This document shows positions 576-8,389 of a stretch of 23,789 bases of DNA, one piece after another (positions within the stretch are counted from its first letter, which is position 1; every line of letters begins with the position of its first letter). The notes below the pieces were generated by a model. It was given only the letters and a program-made list of their open reading frames with translations, ran no database searches and was not told the DNA's origin. The position numbers and the translations under genes are program-made. Source of the DNA: a virus; UHGV virus genome UHGV-1460385. One strand, 5' to 3'.

Positions 576-3263
576 CTATTCCACAACATCATCTTCTATC
601 AATTCAGCCTTATTTAGTTGTTCCTTAAGCTTATTCCATGCAGAATCCTCAGGCATCTGTACTCGCACAGAAACGAATTGATTAGCAGGAATGTCGATCG
701 GGTCACCGTTCGAAACACCAGGGATGTCGTTACGTGCAAAAACGGGCGAGTTATCATGAGTGCGGTGAAACGTTTTCACCAACACAGATCCATCTTGGTT
801 AACAACATAATCCAGCCAGATGAGCGGCTGCTTGTTTCGGTCCTGCGGTATTTCAAATCCACCATCAATCCCCCCCCATGAAGCATCTGCATTCAGACCT
901 ACGCAACCCTCAATCAGATATTCACCCAATGCCAGCCGTGTGACGGTTACCCCATCTGATTCGCGATTTGTTTCACTACTACCGTCTGAGAAAATCTTCA
1001 CAACCGGAGAGGCTTTTTTGATGAAACCACTTGAATCGACGGTCGTGTTCAGCGACGACCATGCCTCAGCCCAGCCTGTGTTACCTGCGCGAATAGCATC
1101 GTCTGCGTAGCGGAAGAACAGTTTTGATGTTGTGGACATGAATATCTGCAACACACGGTTTTTTGCATATCCTGACTCCCATAATGCTCCGTTACCTGTT
1201 CCTTCTGGCTGCCAGTTTGTCACCCCACCTGCAGCTCCTATACTTACACCAGTAGACCAGTCTCCAGCAAATTCTGGAAGATTTAGTGAGTTAGGTGAGC
1301 GAATTGATACATCAACCAGACCAGGGGATCCGAGAATCGACATGCTGCGGGAGGACACCTTAGTAAAAGAGTTGTACCCGCCGTTTTTGGAAATCCTTCC
1401 TGTATAATTATTAGCCCTGTTAGTTCCATTAACTGTAATTTCCCAGGTATCGCCGTTGATGAAGTCGATCTGCAATAGGCAGAATGCTGGCAGCGTCATC
1501 TGTCCTGGCGCAGATGGCCCACCTTCAAACAGTGGCATATCCTGTTCAAGATATGTCACATATCTACCTGCATCTGTATTCCGCAAATAGTCACAAATAG
1601 CCTGTGCCGATGTAAATAGCGCAATACCATCAGCCGGGTTTACAGGGTGACGGCCAGCGTTAATCACCCTTCCGCGAGGGTTAAATAACTGTGATGAGGC
1701 ATTGGATAGCGGAGTCATGTCTACTGTTCCAGGTTCATTAGATGGACAGTTAGCGCGAATGATGTTTAAAGTCCTATAATTTGATCCGCCCCCATTGTCA
1801 TAGCGAATAGACTGTAGAAGATACAATTCCTCAGAGCCAGAAATATCACAAGACTGCACCCCCTCATTTTCAGTGGAGTAAACACTCTTCCCTGAATAAC
1901 TATCCCAGTATGTTTTGAAATCTGCAGGTGACAGCAGGTACTGACCTAATTCTGAACCATTAAGGCTGTACTCAATATAACCCTGCAACCCTGCGAAAGT
2001 ATTTCCAGATCCCGCCGTGGTAGATGCACCAATACCAGCAAATATCCGTTGAGAACCAAGAGCGACACCCTGCCGTTTTGGTTTACCGGCTCCGCGACCT
2101 CCAACATTTGCATCAACCGTAATAGTCCCCATTGGACTGTAAGATCCTTCTATAAGGCTGTTAATATCCAGTGTGTTAAAGATATTGGATACACCTGTCT
2201 CAACATCAAAAATTTTCGGCCAACCCATATCCGCATTTTCGTATATCAGGGTATTACCAAAGCCACTAAACTGATATCGCACTCCAAGGCGTGTTGATTC
2301 AGTGAAGTTTGTAATCTGCGTTTTATCAACCAGCGTACGCGGATCTTCGATAGGGTAAATTCTGATAGTGCGAGATGGGCTGTACGGCAGCAGGATGTAA
2401 CGCTGTCCTGCCACTCGGTAAACGTGGATGCCTTCTGGTGCACCAACGTTATTCGGAAAATGAAGACGTGTTACCAATGCTCCTGTTACCCAGTCATGCA
2501 CCGTAACCCATACCGATGCGGGGTCTAGCGTCTGCCAGCCGATGTATACCATTCCATCATTGCTGTCTATGTAAATCCCCTGAAATCCCATGGTCGTGTA
2601 ACCATACTGATCTTTAAGATCTGCGGTAATCTCATCGTCTATGATGCTGAATTCTAATTTCCAGTTCAGCGGCCTACGCGTACCACTGACATGCCTAGAA
2701 ATATGAGACAGGTAGCTTTTAACCCCGCCTGCGATAATGTATCTATGTTTGATCTCAGTAACAATTCCAGTTGCAACTGGAGTGCATTTATAGACGCCGC
2801 CGTTTATTCTAATAAAATTGGTTCCTGTTAGATTATCCCCAATGGCAACGTCTTTTCTACTATTCTTAAACGTCCCATTACCTAAGTCAGTAACAAGCAA
2901 TGCCCCTTCTACATATTTCAATGACTGATCAGGGTCATACTTCAGCACATTAGGAAAATAGAACTGCTGCGCACCATACGCATCATAAACAGCCATAGAG
3001 TGGCCTTGCACAGTTACGAACTTGGCAATCTGTCCGTTATATACCGGGTAACCAGCAGCGTTAATGATTATTGGTTGCGAAACAGGAACGTGAGAACCGT
3101 CTTCATTCTCCACATAGACCTGAATCTGGTTTTCTGGATTTACAGGATCAGTGTCAATTTTACCGATATAAATTTTGCCATTGGCTACGGCTTTAAAAGA
3201 ACGCGCCATAGTGAAGAGTTGCGAAGGCATCGATACGATCACATTGGCTGTAATGTCTCTCAT
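576..3263 (-). CDS. Tailspike / receptor-binding protein (895 aa): P22-type N-terminal head-binding domain fused to a large non-P22 C-terminal body
   Basis: Residues 1-110 ([40 protein letters not shown]...[12 protein letters not shown]...NVLKYDPDQ) closely match my recollection of the P22 gp9 head-binding domain. The remaining ~780 aa do not resemble the P22 endorhamnosidase body. Last gene of the late operon, after ant, as in P22. ATG at 3263 with GGAG 9 nt upstream; TAG stop at 576-578. Confidence 0.9.
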
Positions 3264-3321
3264 TTAATTTGCTCCAGACACAAGGAATCGCCGCAGCATG
3301 GCTACGGTGAATTTTGGGCAT

Positions 3322-3344
3322 AAAAAAACCCAGCCGAAGCTGGG
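3322..3344 (-). terminator. Intrinsic terminator between ant and the tailspike gene
   Basis: Minus-strand CCCAGC-TTCG-GCTGGG hairpin followed by TTTTTTT (plus-strand A7 at 3322-3328). Canonical GC stem with TTCG tetraloop. Confidence 0.75.
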
Positions 3345-3385
3345 TCGTTGCGTTGGTTATTGACCTACACTTTTCGTGCAGGTAG

Positions 3386-4315
3386 TTAAAGTTTAATTGA
3401 GTGGCACGCTCTATCACGTATCGCTGCGAATGAAGCTATCTCTTTAAGTGCCCAGCTTTGCTCAGCCATTAAATGGCGAAGTGCTTTTAGTTCAGCTCTT
3501 ACTGCTGAAACGTCATACCCCGCTTTTGTCAGAATATTGATTAGTTTATACGCCGGACTGCATTCAACGAGTGCGCTGCGGTCAAGAGCAACAGTATCAC
3601 CGCATTGCTGCCTGATAATGGCGTAAGGTGCATTTTCAGCAAACCATGAAATCGGGAAGTTAATATCCAGTTTTGGCGCTGGTAACTCTTCTTGTTTGCC
3701 AATGAACTCACCTTCAAGCGGAACGCGAGCAGCAAGTGACAGTGCTTCGGTAAACTGCTCCTCACTGATTTCTTTGTACGAACATCCAAAATGGGATTTC
3801 AGTGACGACCACATGGTGATCATCGCCTTAGCCTGTTTTTCTTTTGGCAGAGACTGACCGCGACTCATGACGAGTTGTTTAATGGCTTCCTGCTGTTCAG
3901 TGGTAATTTTACTCGGCAACGCCTTTTTAGCTTTGCGTGGGTTAACTACATGACCTTTAGTCCAGTACTCGTAGAGCACATCGTCACACTCTTCCTGATA
4001 CTGGATTACCTTGTCGCGGATTTCAGGGCGGACTTTGTTTGGACTGATGGTTTGCAGCCAGCCAGCAAGTTTGCGAAGTGCCAAACAAATAATCTCACGG
4101 CACTGTTCATCACCAGGAAGCTGCATTGTGATTTTCACAATGGAGGTTTTAAACCGTTGCTTTATTTTCGTAAACTGTGAAGCCCAATCCATACCCATAC
4201 CTTCAACGATAGGTTTCATTGGGGTGTACGGCTCACCGTTGTGATTGACGACATAAAGCTCTGCGCCGTGGAATGGTACATTGATAGTAGATACTGCTGT
4301 TGCTATACTTTTCAT
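3386..4315 (-). CDS. ant: Antirepressor Ant (P22_AR-type N- and C-terminal domains), 309 aa from ATG 4315
   Basis: Position immediately upstream of the tailspike and downstream of arc, as in P22 immI; size near P22 Ant (300 aa). N-terminal VPFHGAELYVVNHNGEPYTPMKPIVEGMGMDW...QLPGDEQ resembles the P22 antirepressor N-domain family as I recall it. The ORF-track start at 4381 is TTG; the first ATG (4315) has AGGAAA 7 nt upstream. Confidence 0.7.
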   Translation of the reverse strand: MKSIATAVSTINVPFHGAELYVVNHNGEPYTPMKPIVEGMGMDWASQFTKIKQRFKTSIVKITMQLPGDEQCREIICLALRKLAGWLQTISPNKVRPEIRDKVIQYQEECDDVLYEYWTKGHVVNPRKAKKALPSKITTEQQEAIKQLVMSRGQSLPKEKQAKAMITMWSSLKSHFGCSYKEISEEQFTEALSLAARVPLEGEFIGKQEELPAPKLDINFPISWFAENAPYAIIRQQCGDTVALDRSALVECSPAYKLINILTKAGYDVSAVRAELKALRHLMAEQSWALKEIASFAAIRDRACHSIKL

Positions 4316-4390
4316 GTCAATATTTCCTAAGACGATTTGTTGATACCGAAGCCCTGACTGTTCCAGCAGTTGGGGCTTCAACGTTTTTCC
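4316..4390 (+). ncRNA. sar: sar-type antisense RNA candidate (~73 nt) covering the ant ribosome-binding site
   Basis: Plus-strand promoter -35 TTGATA (4281-4286), 17-bp spacer, -10 TATACT (4304-4309) with TGc extension. Predicted start near 4316, directly opposite the ant start codon. Ends at a long hairpin (GAAGCCC..ACTG-ttccag-CAGT..GGGCTTC, 4348-4379) followed by ACGTTTTT. Matches the known P22 sar arrangement; transcript not demonstrated. Confidence 0.5.
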
Positions 4391-4647
4391 ACTTCATTTT
4401 GAATTTGCTTAAGTAGCATATTTGTCTCGTCAAGCCTCTTGTTAATACGGTCAAGGCTTTCTACTAAATCGTTATGTGCATGTGATACTTCGTAATTTGA
4501 GACTGATTTCTTTTCCTCTATCGTCTTTGTCAATCGTTCCCCTGATTGATACATATTGATTAGCGCTGTAAAAATCACAAGCAAGCAAACCACAATGATT
4601 GCGCCAGACAAAAATTGTAAAGAACGATCAAGCAATGACACCCTCAT
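4378..4647 (-). CDS. Hypothetical 89-aa protein with one N-terminal transmembrane helix and a charged coiled-coil tail, between arc and ant
   Basis: ATG at 4647 overlaps the arc stop (ATGA). Predicted TM segment LSGAIIVVCLLVIFTALI followed by a heptad-like charged region. No family recognised. Confidence 0.5.
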   Translation of the reverse strand: MRVSLLDRSLQFLSGAIIVVCLLVIFTALINMYQSGERLTKTIEEKKSVSNYEVSHAHNDLVESLDRINKRLDETNMLLKQIQNEVEKR

Positions 4648-4802
4648 ACCATTACCCCCTCCCTCTTCAGGCTGTCCAATACTCGCTTGTAAATCTCAGA
4701 GTTAACAGATCGCTCATTCTCTTTGGCTACCTTGCGCACCAAATCCAATACTTCTTTAGGCATCCGCAAATTAAACTGCGGCATTTTTCTTGCACCTTGC
4801 AT
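4644..4802 (-). CDS. arc: Arc repressor (ribbon-helix-helix), 52 aa; below the 60-aa cutoff so absent from the ORF track
   Basis: Translation by hand: MQGARKMPQFNLRMPKEVLDLVRKVAKENERSVNSEIYKRVLDSLKREGVMV. This matches the P22 Arc sequence as I recall it (MKGMSKMPQFNLRWPREVLDLVRKVAEENGRSVNSEIYQRVMESFKKEGRIGA). GGAG 5 nt upstream of the ATG; TGA stop at 4644-4646. Confidence 0.85.
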   Translation of the reverse strand: MQGARKMPQFNLRMPKEVLDLVRKVAKENERSVNSEIYKRVLDSLKREGVMV

Positions 4803-4818: not shown

Positions 4819-4835
4819 TGAACCACCGTGGTTCA
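4819..4835. promoter_or_regulatory. Omnt-like palindromic operator TGAACCA-CCG-TGGTTCA
   Basis: Perfect 7-bp inverted repeat with 3-bp spacer between the divergent mnt and arc genes. Its core CCACCGTGG resembles the symmetric P22 mnt operator core (TCCACGGTGGA, from memory). Confidence 0.55.
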
Positions 4836-4836
4836 A

Positions 4837-4870
4837 TTGAGAATGTACTATCACCGTTATAGACTGTCAA
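4837..4870. promoter_or_regulatory. Overlapping divergent promoters: Pmnt-like (plus) and Pant-like (minus)
   Basis: Plus strand: -35 TTGAGA (4837-4842), 17 bp, -10 TAGACT (4860-4865). Minus strand: -35 TTGACA (4870-4865), 17 bp, -10 TACATT (4847-4842). The two share bases, and the Pant-like transcript would start inside the palindrome. Confidence 0.45.
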
Positions 4871-4889: not shown

Positions 4890-5144
4890 ATGTCCAGAGA
4901 AGACCCACAATTTAAGTTGCGCCTTCCAGCAGAGTTAAAAGCAAAGTTAGACCAAAGGGCAAAAATGAATGGTCGGTCTATCAATTCTGAACTAGTTCAG
5001 ATCGTACAGAAGGCGTTATCTGAACCATCACCGATTGCAGGCTATCGAGACGAAGCTGAACGCTTGGCTGATCAGCAAGCAGAGCAGTTCAAGACTGTTG
5101 TGTTTGAGACACTTAAAAAGATTTATGGCAAGGATGATAAATAA
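4890..5144 (+). CDS. mnt: Mnt repressor (Arc/MetJ-family ribbon-helix-helix), 84 aa
   Basis: MSREDPQFKLRLPAELKAKLDQRAKMNGRSINSELVQIVQKALSEPSPIAGYRDEAERLADQQ... is near-colinear with the P22 Mnt sequence as I recall it (ARDDPHFNFRMPMEVREKLKFRAEANGRSMNSELLQIVQDALSKPSPVTGYRNDAERLADEQ...). Divergent from arc-ant across an operator. Confidence 0.85.
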   Translation: MSREDPQFKLRLPAELKAKLDQRAKMNGRSINSELVQIVQKALSEPSPIAGYRDEAERLADQQAEQFKTVVFETLKKIYGKDDK

Positions 5145-5680
5145 TGCTGCACACAATTCATTTCTTATGCCCCGTTAACACCGCCACTGTTGGGCAACTT
5201 CAGAACCACTGTCTCACCGCATTATCTCAAGGCGCAACTGAATTAAATATCCATATATCAAGTCAGGGAGGGGAAACAGCCGCTGGCTTTACTGCGTATA
5301 ACTTTCTTAAGTCACTCCCTGTTACCGTTAGAACTCACAACATAAGCAATGTTGAATCCATAGCTAATATCGTTTTCCTGGCTGGCTCAGAACGTTTCGC
5401 AAACCCATTATCAAGATTCCTGTTACATCCTCTATTATGGTGCTTTGCCTCCCCAGCCGCCGACCATGCCAGATTGAGAGAGTACGGGAAATGCCTCGAT
5501 AACGATCTTGATCGCTTCGTTGAGACGTTCAATATCGACATCGGAACCCATATTAGGTGGGCATCCCTGATAGCAGACTCGACCATTTTGGATGCTAACA
5601 AGGCTCTTGAGCATGGCATAATTAATTCCATAAAAACTGCAAGGCTGGTATCCAATCAGGCAAACTGGTGGGTTGTTTGA
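5144..5680 (+). CDS. Truncated ClpP-family (S14-like) serine protease, 178 aa, translationally coupled to mnt
   Basis: Start ATG overlaps the mnt TAA (TAATG). By-eye alignment to E. coli ClpP: NIHISSQGGETAAG vs YINSPGGVITAG; SNVESIANIVFLAG vs GQAASMGAFLLTAG (Ser); RFLLHPL vs RVMIHQPL (His); ILDANKALEHGII vs FLSAPEAVEYGLV with an upstream Asp. Ser-His-Asp spacing matches. The ~25 N-terminal residues of ClpP are absent. Confidence 0.75.
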   Translation: MLHTIHFLCPVNTATVGQLQNHCLTALSQGATELNIHISSQGGETAAGFTAYNFLKSLPVTVRTHNISNVESIANIVFLAGSERFANPLSRFLLHPLLWCFASPAADHARLREYGKCLDNDLDRFVETFNIDIGTHIRWASLIADSTILDANKALEHGIINSIKTARLVSNQANWWVV

Positions 5681-5736: not shown

Positions 5737-5958
5737 TTAGTTATCAAAAAGTCCGTACGTTTCTTCTTCTTCAGGTGTAAGGGGAAGAATCTCTACTCTA
5801 TCTATAGATACCTTTTCAATGTACCCATGAGGTCTACTTAAAATTAAAGCTCTCTCATGCCACAGAACTCCAAGAATGTGATACCTCCCAGCATCGCCTT
5901 TTACCCTGGCTCTTCCTTTGATTCTTGGCGGCATAATGCCATATTTTTTCTTTGCCAT
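5737..5958 (-). CDS. Hypothetical 73-aa protein, last gene of the minus-strand antirepressor operon
   Basis: ATG at 5958 overlaps the upstream TAA (TAATG); basic N-terminus, acidic C-terminus; followed by the terminator at 5705-5730. No family recognised. Confidence 0.45.
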   Translation of the reverse strand: MAKKKYGIMPPRIKGRARVKGDAGRYHILGVLWHERALILSRPHGYIEKVSIDRVEILPLTPEEEETYGLFDN

Positions 5959-6686
5959 TATGCAACATTACTCCCATGAATCAGGTGTTGTAGAGCTTTA
6001 ACACCTTCCGCATTGTAGCGGAATGCTTCCACCTGTTTGCTGGAATGTGCAGATTTATCCAGGAAGAACTTCCCGTACTGCTCAGTTTTGAGGTTGTTTG
6101 CGTTAGCAATGCGACCAATCTTGTTGGCCGTTACTCCAAGCTGCTCTGCAACCTCCCCTGCTGAGTAGTAATGCTCTTCTATTGCTGGAAGAGGTATTGC
6201 ATTAAAACCAACGATCGGGTTGATTATGCTTGCTGCCGCAGTCTGCTTTGCTTCCGGCGCAAGATTTGGCATCAAATCGAACAGATTGGTAACAGCTTCA
6301 ACCGTCATTTTCAATGTTCGCGCCTGGCGATACTCAACAAGTCCACTCGACGATTTACCGCTTTTAATGTGCGCTTCTTGCATACTTTCAAGTTGGTCTA
6401 CAAGTGAGCGGCGAACAGCTTTAGATTCACGAGCAGCCACTCGAAGGGCTTGCTTAATTGACATAACAACTTTTTCAGAAGTTGTCTTGTTTGATTTTTG
6501 AACTACGAAAATTTCGTAGTGCTCACCTTCAAGTTCATCCTTAATGCGTGCAATAAAGTCGTTATTTCGGACTTCTTTTTCCCCGCACTGTCTACGAGCA
6601 TGATTGACCATCTCTAACAGGTACTGGCTATCAATGGTTTTATCCGTGACAACGGATCCGATGTTTGCTACATTCTTAAAAGTCAT
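5958..6686 (-). CDS. Rha-like N-domain plus KilA-C-like C-domain protein (antirepressor-family regulator), 242 aa from ATG 6686
   Basis: N-terminal TIDSQYLLEMVNHARRQCGEKEVRNNDFIARIKDEL...HYEIFVVQKS resembles the Rha family. C-terminal YSAGEVAEQLGVTANKIGRIANANNLKTEQYGKFFLDKS resembles KilA-C-type antirepressor C-domains. AAGGA 7 nt upstream of ATG 6686; the track start at 6737 is GTG and would run through a terminator hairpin. Confidence 0.65.
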   Translation of the reverse strand: MTFKNVANIGSVVTDKTIDSQYLLEMVNHARRQCGEKEVRNNDFIARIKDELEGEHYEIFVVQKSNKTTSEKVVMSIKQALRVAARESKAVRRSLVDQLESMQEAHIKSGKSSSGLVEYRQARTLKMTVEAVTNLFDLMPNLAPEAKQTAAASIINPIVGFNAIPLPAIEEHYYSAGEVAEQLGVTANKIGRIANANNLKTEQYGKFFLDKSAHSSKQVEAFRYNAEGVKALQHLIHGSNVA

Positions 6687-6724
6687 TAGGCATTCCTTAT
6701 GTGGTAGTAAGGGTGTGACATAGG

Positions 6725-6755
6725 CCGCCAGCAGCACACTGGCGGTTTTCTTTTT
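6725..6755 (+). terminator. Orphan plus-strand intrinsic terminator in the Bro-N / Rha-like intercistronic gap
   Basis: CCGCCAG-cagcaca-CTGGCGG followed by TTTTCTTTTT. Canonical geometry. There is no annotated plus-strand gene upstream, so it would terminate an antisense transcript. Confidence 0.6.
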
Positions 6756-6774
6756 GCGCAGTCCGGCGCACCAA

Positions 6775-7401
6775 TCAATGAATCCATTCCTCGCCGCGAA
6801 GTTTTGCCAGCATTGGCTGAGCGTTCTTTACGACAAAATTGTTGGTATCAAGATTCTTCATTTCACGAAGAAGTGATTTCTTGGTTTCTTCTGACATGTA
6901 GCGAGTCTCATATGCAATATCGTAAATCCTTCCTGAAAGCTCAGAACCAATTTGCTTCATTCCTGGGTAGATGTGTTTGCACATTTGTTGACTCTTCTCC
7001 ATCCACAATTGTAAGTAGCAGAGATTAACCAGTTCTTCGTCAGTAAACTGTTTTGCAATCGGTGAGCATTCTGCCTGCCGATCCAAAATATCCAGCACCC
7101 AGCGGCGGAACTCTTTGGCTACCGGAGTGCGAGCAAACATCGCGATTAGGTGGGCACCGCGTAGTGAGAAAACTCGCACTTTTTTGCGATAATTTCCTGA
7201 GGTACTCACTTCGAGTACCTGAGTCATTCCGGCGCTAAACTCATCGCTATACTTGTTATAAATCATTGTTACTGCACGACTATTTGCGTATTTAAGTGCA
7301 GATGCAATATTAGATGATGTAAACCAAACACCATGCATATCACGGGTGGGCACCAACTCAACTCCGTGGAAGTTGTAATCTGATTTTGCTACAATATTCA
7401 T
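6775..7401 (-). CDS. Bro-N domain antirepressor-like protein, 208 aa from ATG 7401
   Basis: NFHGVELVPTRDMHGVWFTSSNIASALKYANSRAVTMIYNKY...KKVRVFSLRGAHLIAMFARTPVAKEFRRWVLDIL fits the Bro-N prophage antirepressor pattern. AGGAAA 6 nt upstream of ATG 7401; the track start at 7506 is TTG. Confidence 0.8.
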   Translation of the reverse strand: MNIVAKSDYNFHGVELVPTRDMHGVWFTSSNIASALKYANSRAVTMIYNKYSDEFSAGMTQVLEVSTSGNYRKKVRVFSLRGAHLIAMFARTPVAKEFRRWVLDILDRQAECSPIAKQFTDEELVNLCYLQLWMEKSQQMCKHIYPGMKQIGSELSGRIYDIAYETRYMSEETKKSLLREMKNLDTNNFVVKNAQPMLAKLRGEEWIH

Positions 7402-7476
7402 GTTAGTTTCCTTGCATACGGTTACTGACATAGAGGCCCGGTTTGTGTTCGCGCACTGCCGGGCTTCACTATTTTT
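7402..7476 (+). ncRNA. Second sar-like antisense RNA candidate, opposite the Bro-N gene start
   Basis: Extended -10 TGcTACAAT at 7387-7395 on the plus strand, ending 3 nt before the complement of the Bro-N ATG (same geometry as at ant). Hairpin GCCCGG..CCGGGC (7436-7464) followed by U-rich TTCACTATTTTTATT. Weak -35, and the U-tract is interrupted. Confidence 0.35.
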
Positions 7477-7648
7477 ATTGGATGACAACATCGCCCTTTG
7501 CCTCAAGTTTCATCAATAACTCCATTCGATAAGCTATCTCTGCCTGAATTGACCTATGGCATCTTTTTGCTGATTCGCGGATATGTGAATCAACCTTTTC
7601 TGTAAAACGAACCTGACGCGGCTTGATGGAAGATATCTTTTCAGTCAT
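7475..7648 (-). CDS. Arc-like ribbon-helix-helix regulator, 57 aa; absent from the ORF track
   Basis: Translation by hand: MTEKISSIKPRQVRFTEKVDSHIRESAKRCHRSIQAEIAYRMELLMKLEAKGDVVIQ. Pattern of beta-strand (RQVRFTEKV) then two helices with RS-I-EI motif is typical of Arc/CopG. GGAG 6 nt upstream of ATG 7648; TAA at 7475-7477. Confidence 0.7.
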   Translation of the reverse strand: MTEKISSIKPRQVRFTEKVDSHIRESAKRCHRSIQAEIAYRMELLMKLEAKGDVVIQ

Positions 7649-7697
7649 TATGCACTCCTGTTTTTAAAAAACTCATAATCTCACTTTTTGTAGTTTG

Positions 7698-7726
7698 ATT
7701 ATTCACTCACACTCAGCATGAGTCAA
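7698..7726 (-). promoter_or_regulatory. Pant-like promoter for the Arc-like / Bro-N operon
   Basis: Minus strand -35 TTGACT (7726-7721), 17-bp spacer containing tandem CACTCA repeats, -10 AATAAT (7703-7698). Confidence 0.4.
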
Positions 7727-7747
7727 TGAATTTTTTATGGTGAACTA

Positions 7748-8389
7748 ATGAATTTTGACGATCAATTCCCATCAAGAGTATCTCTGGCAAGACAGTCCAG
7801 GGGTATGACGCAGGCGCAGTTGTCAAAATTAGCTGGTGTTGTTCAACGTCAAATAGCTGCATACGAGGGTGGTGAGGCTAAACCACGGCTTCGGGTATTG
7901 CAGGCATTAGCCAACGCATTAGGTACTACAGCTGAGTGGTTAGCTCTAGGTGAAGGTCAGGGTCCGGGAACAAAAAACGTCATGCCTGACGTTCTGGTAA
8001 AGCAAATACCAATCCTCAAACTAGATGAAGTTATGCATTACCTAAACACAGGTGAACATTCATCGTCTAGATTTCATCCGGCAATATACAATGTTGGTGA
8101 CTCTGCATTTGCATTGACTATTGAAGGTGAAGCTATGACTACAAGTTCAGGTATTAGCTTTCCCAGAGGATCGGTTGTCACGTTCAGCCCTCTAGTAAAA
8201 GCTAAAAGCAAAGATTATGTAATAGCATCATTGGATAAAGAGCAAATATTGAGCTTCAAACAGGTTTACATTGGTGAAATAGAGACAAACCTAGTATCCC
8301 TAAACCCAATGTATCCTAATATTCTTGTTAGAAATGAAGATGTTAGTATTTTGGCAACCGCAGTTTACCTTGAAATCCCGTTGCTTTGA
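7748..8389 (+). CDS. Lambda-CI/LexA-fold repressor (HTH plus S24-like C-domain) with Ala at the nucleophile position
   Basis: N-terminal Cro/C1-type HTH (MTQAQLSKLAGVVQRQIAAYEGGEAKP). C-domain aligns with lambda CI: FALTIEGEAM vs FWLDVQGDSM (Ser to Ala, codon GCT), LSFKQV vs ATFKKL (Lys kept), LNPMYPNI vs LNPQYPMI. Confidence 0.85.
   Translation: MNFDDQFPSRVSLARQSRGMTQAQLSKLAGVVQRQIAAYEGGEAKPRLRVLQALANALGTTAEWLALGEGQGPGTKNVMPDVLVKQIPILKLDEVMHYLNTGEHSSSRFHPAIYNVGDSAFALTIEGEAMTTSSGISFPRGSVVTFSPLVKAKSKDYVIASLDKEQILSFKQVYIGEIETNLVSLNPMYPNILVRNEDVSILATAVYLEIPLL

Follow-up and report, generated by a model that had tools for sequence, protein, structure and literature searches.

The virus genome UHGV-1460385 contributes a stretch of 23,789 nucleotides (hereafter the window) in which an antirepressor gene, ant, lies on the minus strand. 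The question raised by this locus is whether the short plus-strand transcription unit that the initial annotation placed opposite the ant start codon is a homologue of the sar RNA of Salmonella phage P22 (Liao et al. 1987; Wu et al. 1987; Schaefer & McClure 1997; as cited in PMC2629481 and PMC12197685), or whether its promoter-like and terminator-like elements are to be explained in some other way.

The immI region of the window

The predicted gene content of the window is that of a late region in a P22-like phage, and its best matches are Escherichia Lederbergvirus-type phages. The features that surround the antisense unit are as follows.

576-3263, minus strand: tailspike with a P22 head-binding domain (domain match)
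3320..3346, minus strand: terminator after ant, GACCCAGC-TTCG-GCTGGGTT followed by TTTTT, coinciding in position with the ant terminator annotated in P22
3386..4315, minus strand: ant, antirepressor of 309 aa (Pfam P22_AR_N, 4.8e-45; PHROG anti-repressor Ant)
4378..4647, minus strand: orf89, 89 aa, between arc and the sar terminator (phrog_27312, 5.8e-60, full length)
4644..4802, minus strand: arc, 52 aa (Pfam Arc, 1.5e-24; ATG 4802 aligns with the P22 arc start)
4820..4834, no strand assigned: putative Mnt operator, the perfect palindrome GAACCACCGTGGTTC, aligned with the Mnt operator of P22 (GGTCCACCGTGGACC)
4837..4865, plus strand: Pmnt-like promoter, TTGAGA, 17 nt, TAGACT, aligning with the annotated P22 Pmnt
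4842..4870, minus strand: Pant-like promoter, TTGACA (4870..4865), 17 nt, TACATT (4847..4842), aligning with the annotated P22 Pant
4890..5144, plus strand: mnt, 84 aa (Pfam Arc, 7.2e-19, and Repressor_Mnt, 3.2e-12)
5958-6737, minus strand: open reading frame of 259 aa, no family match
6775-7506, minus strand: second antirepressor-type gene (Bro-N plus P22_AR_C)
7748-8389, plus strand: CI/LexA-like repressor (HTH_3 plus Peptidase_S24)

The antisense unit had been taken as support for an immI identity of this locus, and the neighboring genes bear that identity out: Mnt, Arc and a P22_AR_N antirepressor are all encoded, mnt diverges from arc-ant, the Pmnt-like and Pant-like promoters overlap as they do in P22, and an operator palindrome is present. 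An arc gene placed directly before the sar terminator and ant was not found in the window, where orf89 intervenes. Judged from its sequence, the P22-type immI region at this locus is complete. The half-sites of the Mnt operator have changed symmetrically, from GGTCC...GGACC in P22 to GAACC...GGTTC in the window. In place of the P22 Arc operator (ATAGTAGAGTGCTTCTATCAT), window positions 4842-4865 have a different imperfect inverted repeat, GTACTATCACCGTTATAGACT, which suggests that the specificity of the Arc operator may differ from that in P22.

The mechanical list of open reading frames starts ant at TTG 4381, yielding a product of 331 aa; this start was rejected, since the ATG at 4315..4313 aligns with the ant starts of P22 and CUS-3. 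The same list extends the arc start to TTG 4814, and its frames of 38 aa on the plus strand (4300-4416) and 45 aa on the minus strand (4317-4454) were set aside as calls without support. On the other side of the locus, a 178-aa ClpP-like protein (5144-5680, plus strand; Pfam CLP_protease, 2e-11, below the NCBIfam cut-offs) is encoded directly after mnt, with overlapping stop and start codons, a layout shared with phiv205-1, EC.P3 and many prophages of E. coli. Positions 5737-8389 form an 'ant moron' with further regulators, which include the last three features listed above.

The start of orf89 overlaps the arc stop codon through ATGA and has GGAGG upstream. Residues 10-33 of its product form a hydrophobic stretch, the C-terminal part is helical, and the PHROG family that the product matches is one of unknown function; no confident match was found in Pfam, NCBIfam or PADLOC, the sole Pfam match (DUF1664) scoring 16.6 bits against a cutoff of 34.6. 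Only two deposited phages, EC.P3 and S.Kent 1-2-1, carry orf89 (97-98% amino-acid identity), and it is at least 96% identical across these two and seven loci of the arc-to-hairpin comparison described below. Because orf89 sits between arc and sar, the distance from Pant to Psar is about 560 bp in the window, compared with about 275 bp in P22. The frame ends in GAA AAA CGT TGA; the U-tract of sar is complementary to the last three codons of the frame, and the stop codon (TGA, 4380..4378) shares the last two bases of the terminator stem, so the initial annotation was right that the 3' end of this frame overlaps the antisense terminator. Having orf89 in place of arc as the upstream frame does not change the interface between sar and ant.

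The antisense unit and its match to P22 sar

The plus-strand unit consists of four features.

4281..4309, plus strand: Psar promoter, inside ant codons 3-12, homologous to the annotated P22 sar promoter
4316..4388, plus strand: predicted sar RNA of about 71-73 nt (Rfam RF00262), both ends predicted
4316..4344, plus strand: sar stem-loop I, in which 4316-4322 pairs with 4338-4344 (7 bp; fold)
4348..4388, plus strand: sar stem-loop II, predicted intrinsic terminator (terminator scan and fold)

A near-consensus promoter had been claimed within the first codons of ant, and all of its elements are in place: a -35 hexamer TTGATA at 4281-4286, a 17-nt spacer, a -10 hexamer TATACT at 4304-4309 and, at 4301-4302, the TG of an extended -10 (TGcTATACT), giving 10 of 12 consensus matches plus the TG. 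Transcription would begin at G4316, which is 7 nt past the -10 and abuts the ant ATG on the other strand, would cross the complement of the ant Shine-Dalgarno sequence (AGGAAA, 4328..4323) and would end within the U-tract at 4384-4388, G4316 to T4388 being 73 nt. As sequence predictions, the start opposite the ant ATG, the run over the ribosome-binding site and the hairpin end about 73 nt on therefore agree with the coordinates first proposed. The loop of stem-loop I bears UUUCCU (4323-4328), the complement of AGGAAA, and stem-loop II (stem 4348-4379) has 14 bp between 4348-4361 and 4366-4379, seven of them G-C, closed by the loop UCCA and followed on its 3' side by the tail AACGTTTTT (4380-4388). 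When folded as a 75-nt RNA, the sequence forms both hairpins with an energy of -29.8 kcal/mol (z -5.4), a value that none of 200 shuffled sequences equaled.

Could such promoter-like and terminator-like motifs coincide by chance? They are common in this AT-rich region, in which nine promoter-like sites were found and 5.5 +/- 2.5 expected, and four terminator-like sites were found and 2.4 +/- 1.6 expected, neither number being significant alone. The significance of the sar unit thus comes from the Rfam match, the z score of the fold and conservation, and not from the motifs alone. The Rfam sar model, RF00262, matches positions 4317-4383 over its entire length (model positions 1-68 of 68) with 66.2 bits and an E value of 6.4e-12, against a gathering score of 43 bits; this is the sole Rfam match across the 23.8-kb window, and the scan found no second sar-like RNA there. 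Further evidence against coincidence is that the elements are positionally homologous to annotated P22 features and conserved in more than 100 loci, and that, of 5426 complete E. coli genomes, 703 have a sar-like match, 150 of these matching 80% or more of the query. Taken together, the Rfam match, the alignment with P22 and the model matches in relatives refute a chance origin, to which we give practically no weight.

In the curated P22 record (BK000583), sar is represented by a promoter, a 70-nt RNA starting beside the start codon of ant, and a terminator overlapping the stop of arc; alignment to the arc-ant region of P22 shows that the window matches the annotated promoter, RNA and terminator position for position. 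In both phages the 5' end of sar abuts the ant ATG, the promoter lies within the first ant codons and has the same extended -10 (TTGCTATACT; TGcTATACT), the RNA has two hairpins with a terminator stem of identical sequence (loop excepted), and complementarity to the ant ribosome-binding site is found within an mnt/arc/ant context. Stem I differs in sequence, with UCAAUA/UGUUGA in the window and GUUGGU/ACUGAC in P22, but its pairing is kept; its loop also differs. Because of these differences in stem I and its loop, the score of the window (66 bits) is below that of P22 (98 bits). The -35 element of the window (TTGATA) is better than that of P22 (GTGTTA), and the U-tract is longer in the window (AACGUUUUU versus AACUUUA in the RNA, AACGTTTTT versus AACTTTA as the DNA tail). 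Finally, the terminator lies at the end of the 89-aa membrane-protein frame in the window, whereas in P22 it lies at the end of arc.

The architecture of P22 sar that had been attributed to this unit is thus upheld by the full-length RF00262 match, the base-for-base alignment with P22 features and the immI context. The RNA is encoded opposite the leader of the antirepressor gene, its 5' end lies beside the ant start with the Shine-Dalgarno sequence covered, it has what appears to be its own sigma-70 promoter opposite the first ant codons, and of its two stem-loops the 3' one has the form of an intrinsic terminator. By all of these comparisons the element is a member of a known, curated RNA family in its canonical context, that is, an ordinary copy of sar.

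Alternatively, the structure might act on the minus strand, as an attenuator, processing site or stabiliser within ant mRNA, with no antisense transcript being made. The complementary mRNA can form versions of both hairpins, but these are weaker: three G.U pairs of stem II become A.C mismatches on the minus strand, which makes the structure strand-specific, and the minus-strand fold has an energy of -20.3 kcal/mol (z -1.3) that 25 of 200 shuffled sequences equaled. Moreover, a conserved plus-strand promoter points into the structure. With no T-run after the hairpin on the minus strand and only this weak fold, a terminator or attenuator role on that strand was rejected. The strand specificity of the fold and the lack of a minus-strand T-run argue for a terminator of a plus-strand RNA rather than an mRNA element, and we consider the latter extremely unlikely.

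Conservation of the hairpin and the genes beside it

RF00262 scores above threshold in P22 (97.8 bits), 611R6, CUS-3, phiv205-1, Emek, SPN3UB and TL-2011b, and below threshold in the Edwardsiella phages GF-2 and Edno5 (32 and 30 bits). Scanning IMG/VR for the exact hairpin yielded 119 loci, and with the window and phage loci 121 could be scored; since the scan demanded an exact stem, the invariance of the hairpin in this set arises partly by construction, and divergence of the hairpin was judged instead from the copies found by BLAST in SPN3UB, TL-2011b, GF-2 and Edno5. The extended -10 motif TGnTAnnnT keeps a constant distance from the ant ATG in 120 of the 121 loci, the TG being one base closer in the remaining one (L068), and this spacing holds over 16 variants of the promoter and Ant N-terminus. 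The window has its Psar variant in common with 21 loci, and this variant is the nearest to consensus of all.

Stems were compared across relatives with Rfam structural alignments, and the stem I variants were folded one by one, a MAFFT alignment having put stem I of P22 and of the window one column apart. Stem I occurs in at least eight sequence types, all of which give a common two-hairpin fold, indicating compensatory change, and the terminator stem of the Edwardsiella phages and TL-2011b differs in sequence, with changes on both sides and pairing kept. Loss of the promoter or terminator in related P22-like phages had been named at the outset as an observation that would speak against a sar unit; both elements are conserved.

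Invariance of the hairpin might also reflect a role mainly as a recombination joint, or 'boundary sequence', in which case the promoter-like match and the fold would be relics without regulatory function. The CUS-3 record (CP000711) annotates this zone as 'bsq2; boundary sequence', and stem I types and right-flank types (12 x 18 types) are found in 39 combinations, compared with 15 for the tightly linked ant N-terminus and stem I. Because stem I and right-flank types reassort so freely, the sar hairpin behaves also as a recombination joint, which agrees with the CUS-3 annotation. It resembles the lambdoid and P22-like boundary sequences (bsq1 and bsq2 in CUS-3) in being a conserved joint between reassorting modules; these are, however, a descriptive category only, whereas the joint here is predicted to be a functional RNA terminator as well. 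Joint and regulatory roles are not exclusive, and relics are difficult to reconcile with a promoter as close to consensus as that of the window, with a U-tract longer than that of P22, with covariation of stem I or with hairpin pairing that compensatory changes have kept where the sequence differs. We therefore regard a joint devoid of regulatory function as very unlikely and retain the reading of the element as sar.

Within the terminator loop (window 4362-4365), three variable bases take 10 values among loci with an identical stem, and these values are reassorted with respect to both flanks. The explanation is either rapid evolution of the loop or crossing-over within each 14-nt arm. It could also be frequent recombination, and not selection on the RNA, that keeps the hairpin identical.

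The window is not alone in having a gene between arc and the sar terminator. Emek, EC.P3, S.Kent 1-2-1, 611R6, phiv205-1 and CUS-3 share the order arc, small extra open reading frame, sar terminator and ant, together with an identical hairpin; they differ in having other pairings of Ant N-termini with stem I types. The extra frame is orf89 in EC.P3 and S.Kent 1-2-1 and is unrelated to it in the others, comprising 73 aa in Emek and 611R6, 57 aa in phiv205-1 and a Cys-rich, unannotated 67 aa in CUS-3. Among 114 loci compared from arc to the hairpin, the frame ending at the hairpin encodes an Arc-type repressor in the majority; 49 loci have in its stead a small frame, of which at least eight unrelated kinds occur (57, 60, 63, 67, 73, 74, 80 and 89 aa). 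An upstream joint, GACAGCCTGAAGAGAGAGGGGnTnnnGGTATGA, precedes all of these cargo frames; it encodes the C-terminus '...DSLKREGxxV*', with which three different Arc-type proteins end, and also provides a Shine-Dalgarno sequence and an ATGA or GTGA overlap with the cargo frame. At the other end, all five right-flank types checked by hand terminate at a TGA formed from one tail base and the first two hairpin bases. Of 16 distinct frames ending at the hairpin (Arc-type and cargo), nine have a C-terminal Lys-(Ser/Gln/Arg) whose Lys is encoded by the complement of the sar U-tract. This layout is seen in the window (4378-4647, minus strand), in L002, L003 (CUS-3), L125, L126 and L129, and in IMG/VR loci.

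These observations lead us to propose, with somewhat more confidence than doubt, that the sar terminator is one of two fixed joints bracketing a slot for swappable cargo genes within immI. The downstream joint would consist of an A-tract and a TGA completed by hairpin bases, and a gene placed in the slot would come under Pant/Arc/Mnt control while itself supplying the U-tract of sar. We found no earlier description of such a two-joint cargo slot. The pattern is a modest side observation and leaves the identity of the sar element unchanged.

Several cargo frames have CxxC...CxxC motifs (L046-, L075-, L025- and L003-type loci), and the 60-aa frame (MNKEDGFKCSFCGKPQHECAMLIRAKAEIFICSSCVSLC...) presumably resembles the N-terminal zinc-binding domain of ClpX; two further cargo frames are likewise Cys-rich. 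In the CUS-3 locus (L003), the intervals 1610-1813 and 1810-about 1950 (both minus strand) between them hold an unannotated Arc-like gene (MKVKTLRMPEKLEK...REGVMV) and the unannotated 67-aa Cys-rich frame within the 'bsq2 boundary sequence'; CUS-3 has been described as apparently lacking arc (PMC2629481).

Proposed control of ant and its significance

We conclude that the unit is, with high probability, a functional sar homologue, and that the immI region containing it belongs to a P22-like (Lederbergvirus-type) phage or prophage whose host is Escherichia or a close relative. In the mechanism that we envisage, a sigma-70 promoter of the extended -10 type, lying within the first ant codons, would fire away from ant on the opposite strand and give rise to a two-hairpin RNA of about 72 nt. 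Being encoded opposite its target, this RNA is perfectly complementary to the 62-nt leader that extends from the upstream open reading frame to ant and includes the Shine-Dalgarno sequence, and pairing with the leader would occlude the ribosome-binding site and lower Ant synthesis. In this way sar may limit the Ant made both from Pant transcripts and from read-through transcripts of the late operon, in addition to transcriptional repression by Arc and Mnt. In a lysogen, Mnt represses Pant, and transcription from Pant may activate Psar.

A comparable outcome is reached by other means in the immI regions of phages P1 and P7, where the c4 antisense RNA is likewise a small RNA that limits ant synthesis by pairing near the ribosome-binding site. 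Unlike sar, c4 is not made from the opposite strand; it is processed from the transcript of its own target and acts via short complementary boxes. To our knowledge, c4 and sar have no sequence or structural homology.

Transcription of sar, its pairing with the leader and repression of ant are proposed for this phage by homology to P22, for which the mechanism has been published (PMC12197685, PMC7968456; context in PMC2629481). The late promoter also reads arc and ant (PMC12111858), and sar reads have been detected during P22 infection (PMC13397905).

Among the records listed, sar is annotated in those of P22, P22virB-3 and epsilon34, and no sar feature is found under the RefSeq E. coli matches listed or in the other phage records listed, which have the flanking coding sequences only. 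A standard Rfam scan would annotate sar in the window, and the annotation of ant is to be corrected to a start at ATG 4315 instead of TTG 4381. In itself the finding matters very little, its consequence being to confirm the locus as a complete P22-type immI region. The cargo slot, if true, could explain the presence of small accessory genes under antirepressor-type control in P22-like phages, and it yields a defined set of candidates that includes orf89 and the ClpX zinc-finger-like proteins.
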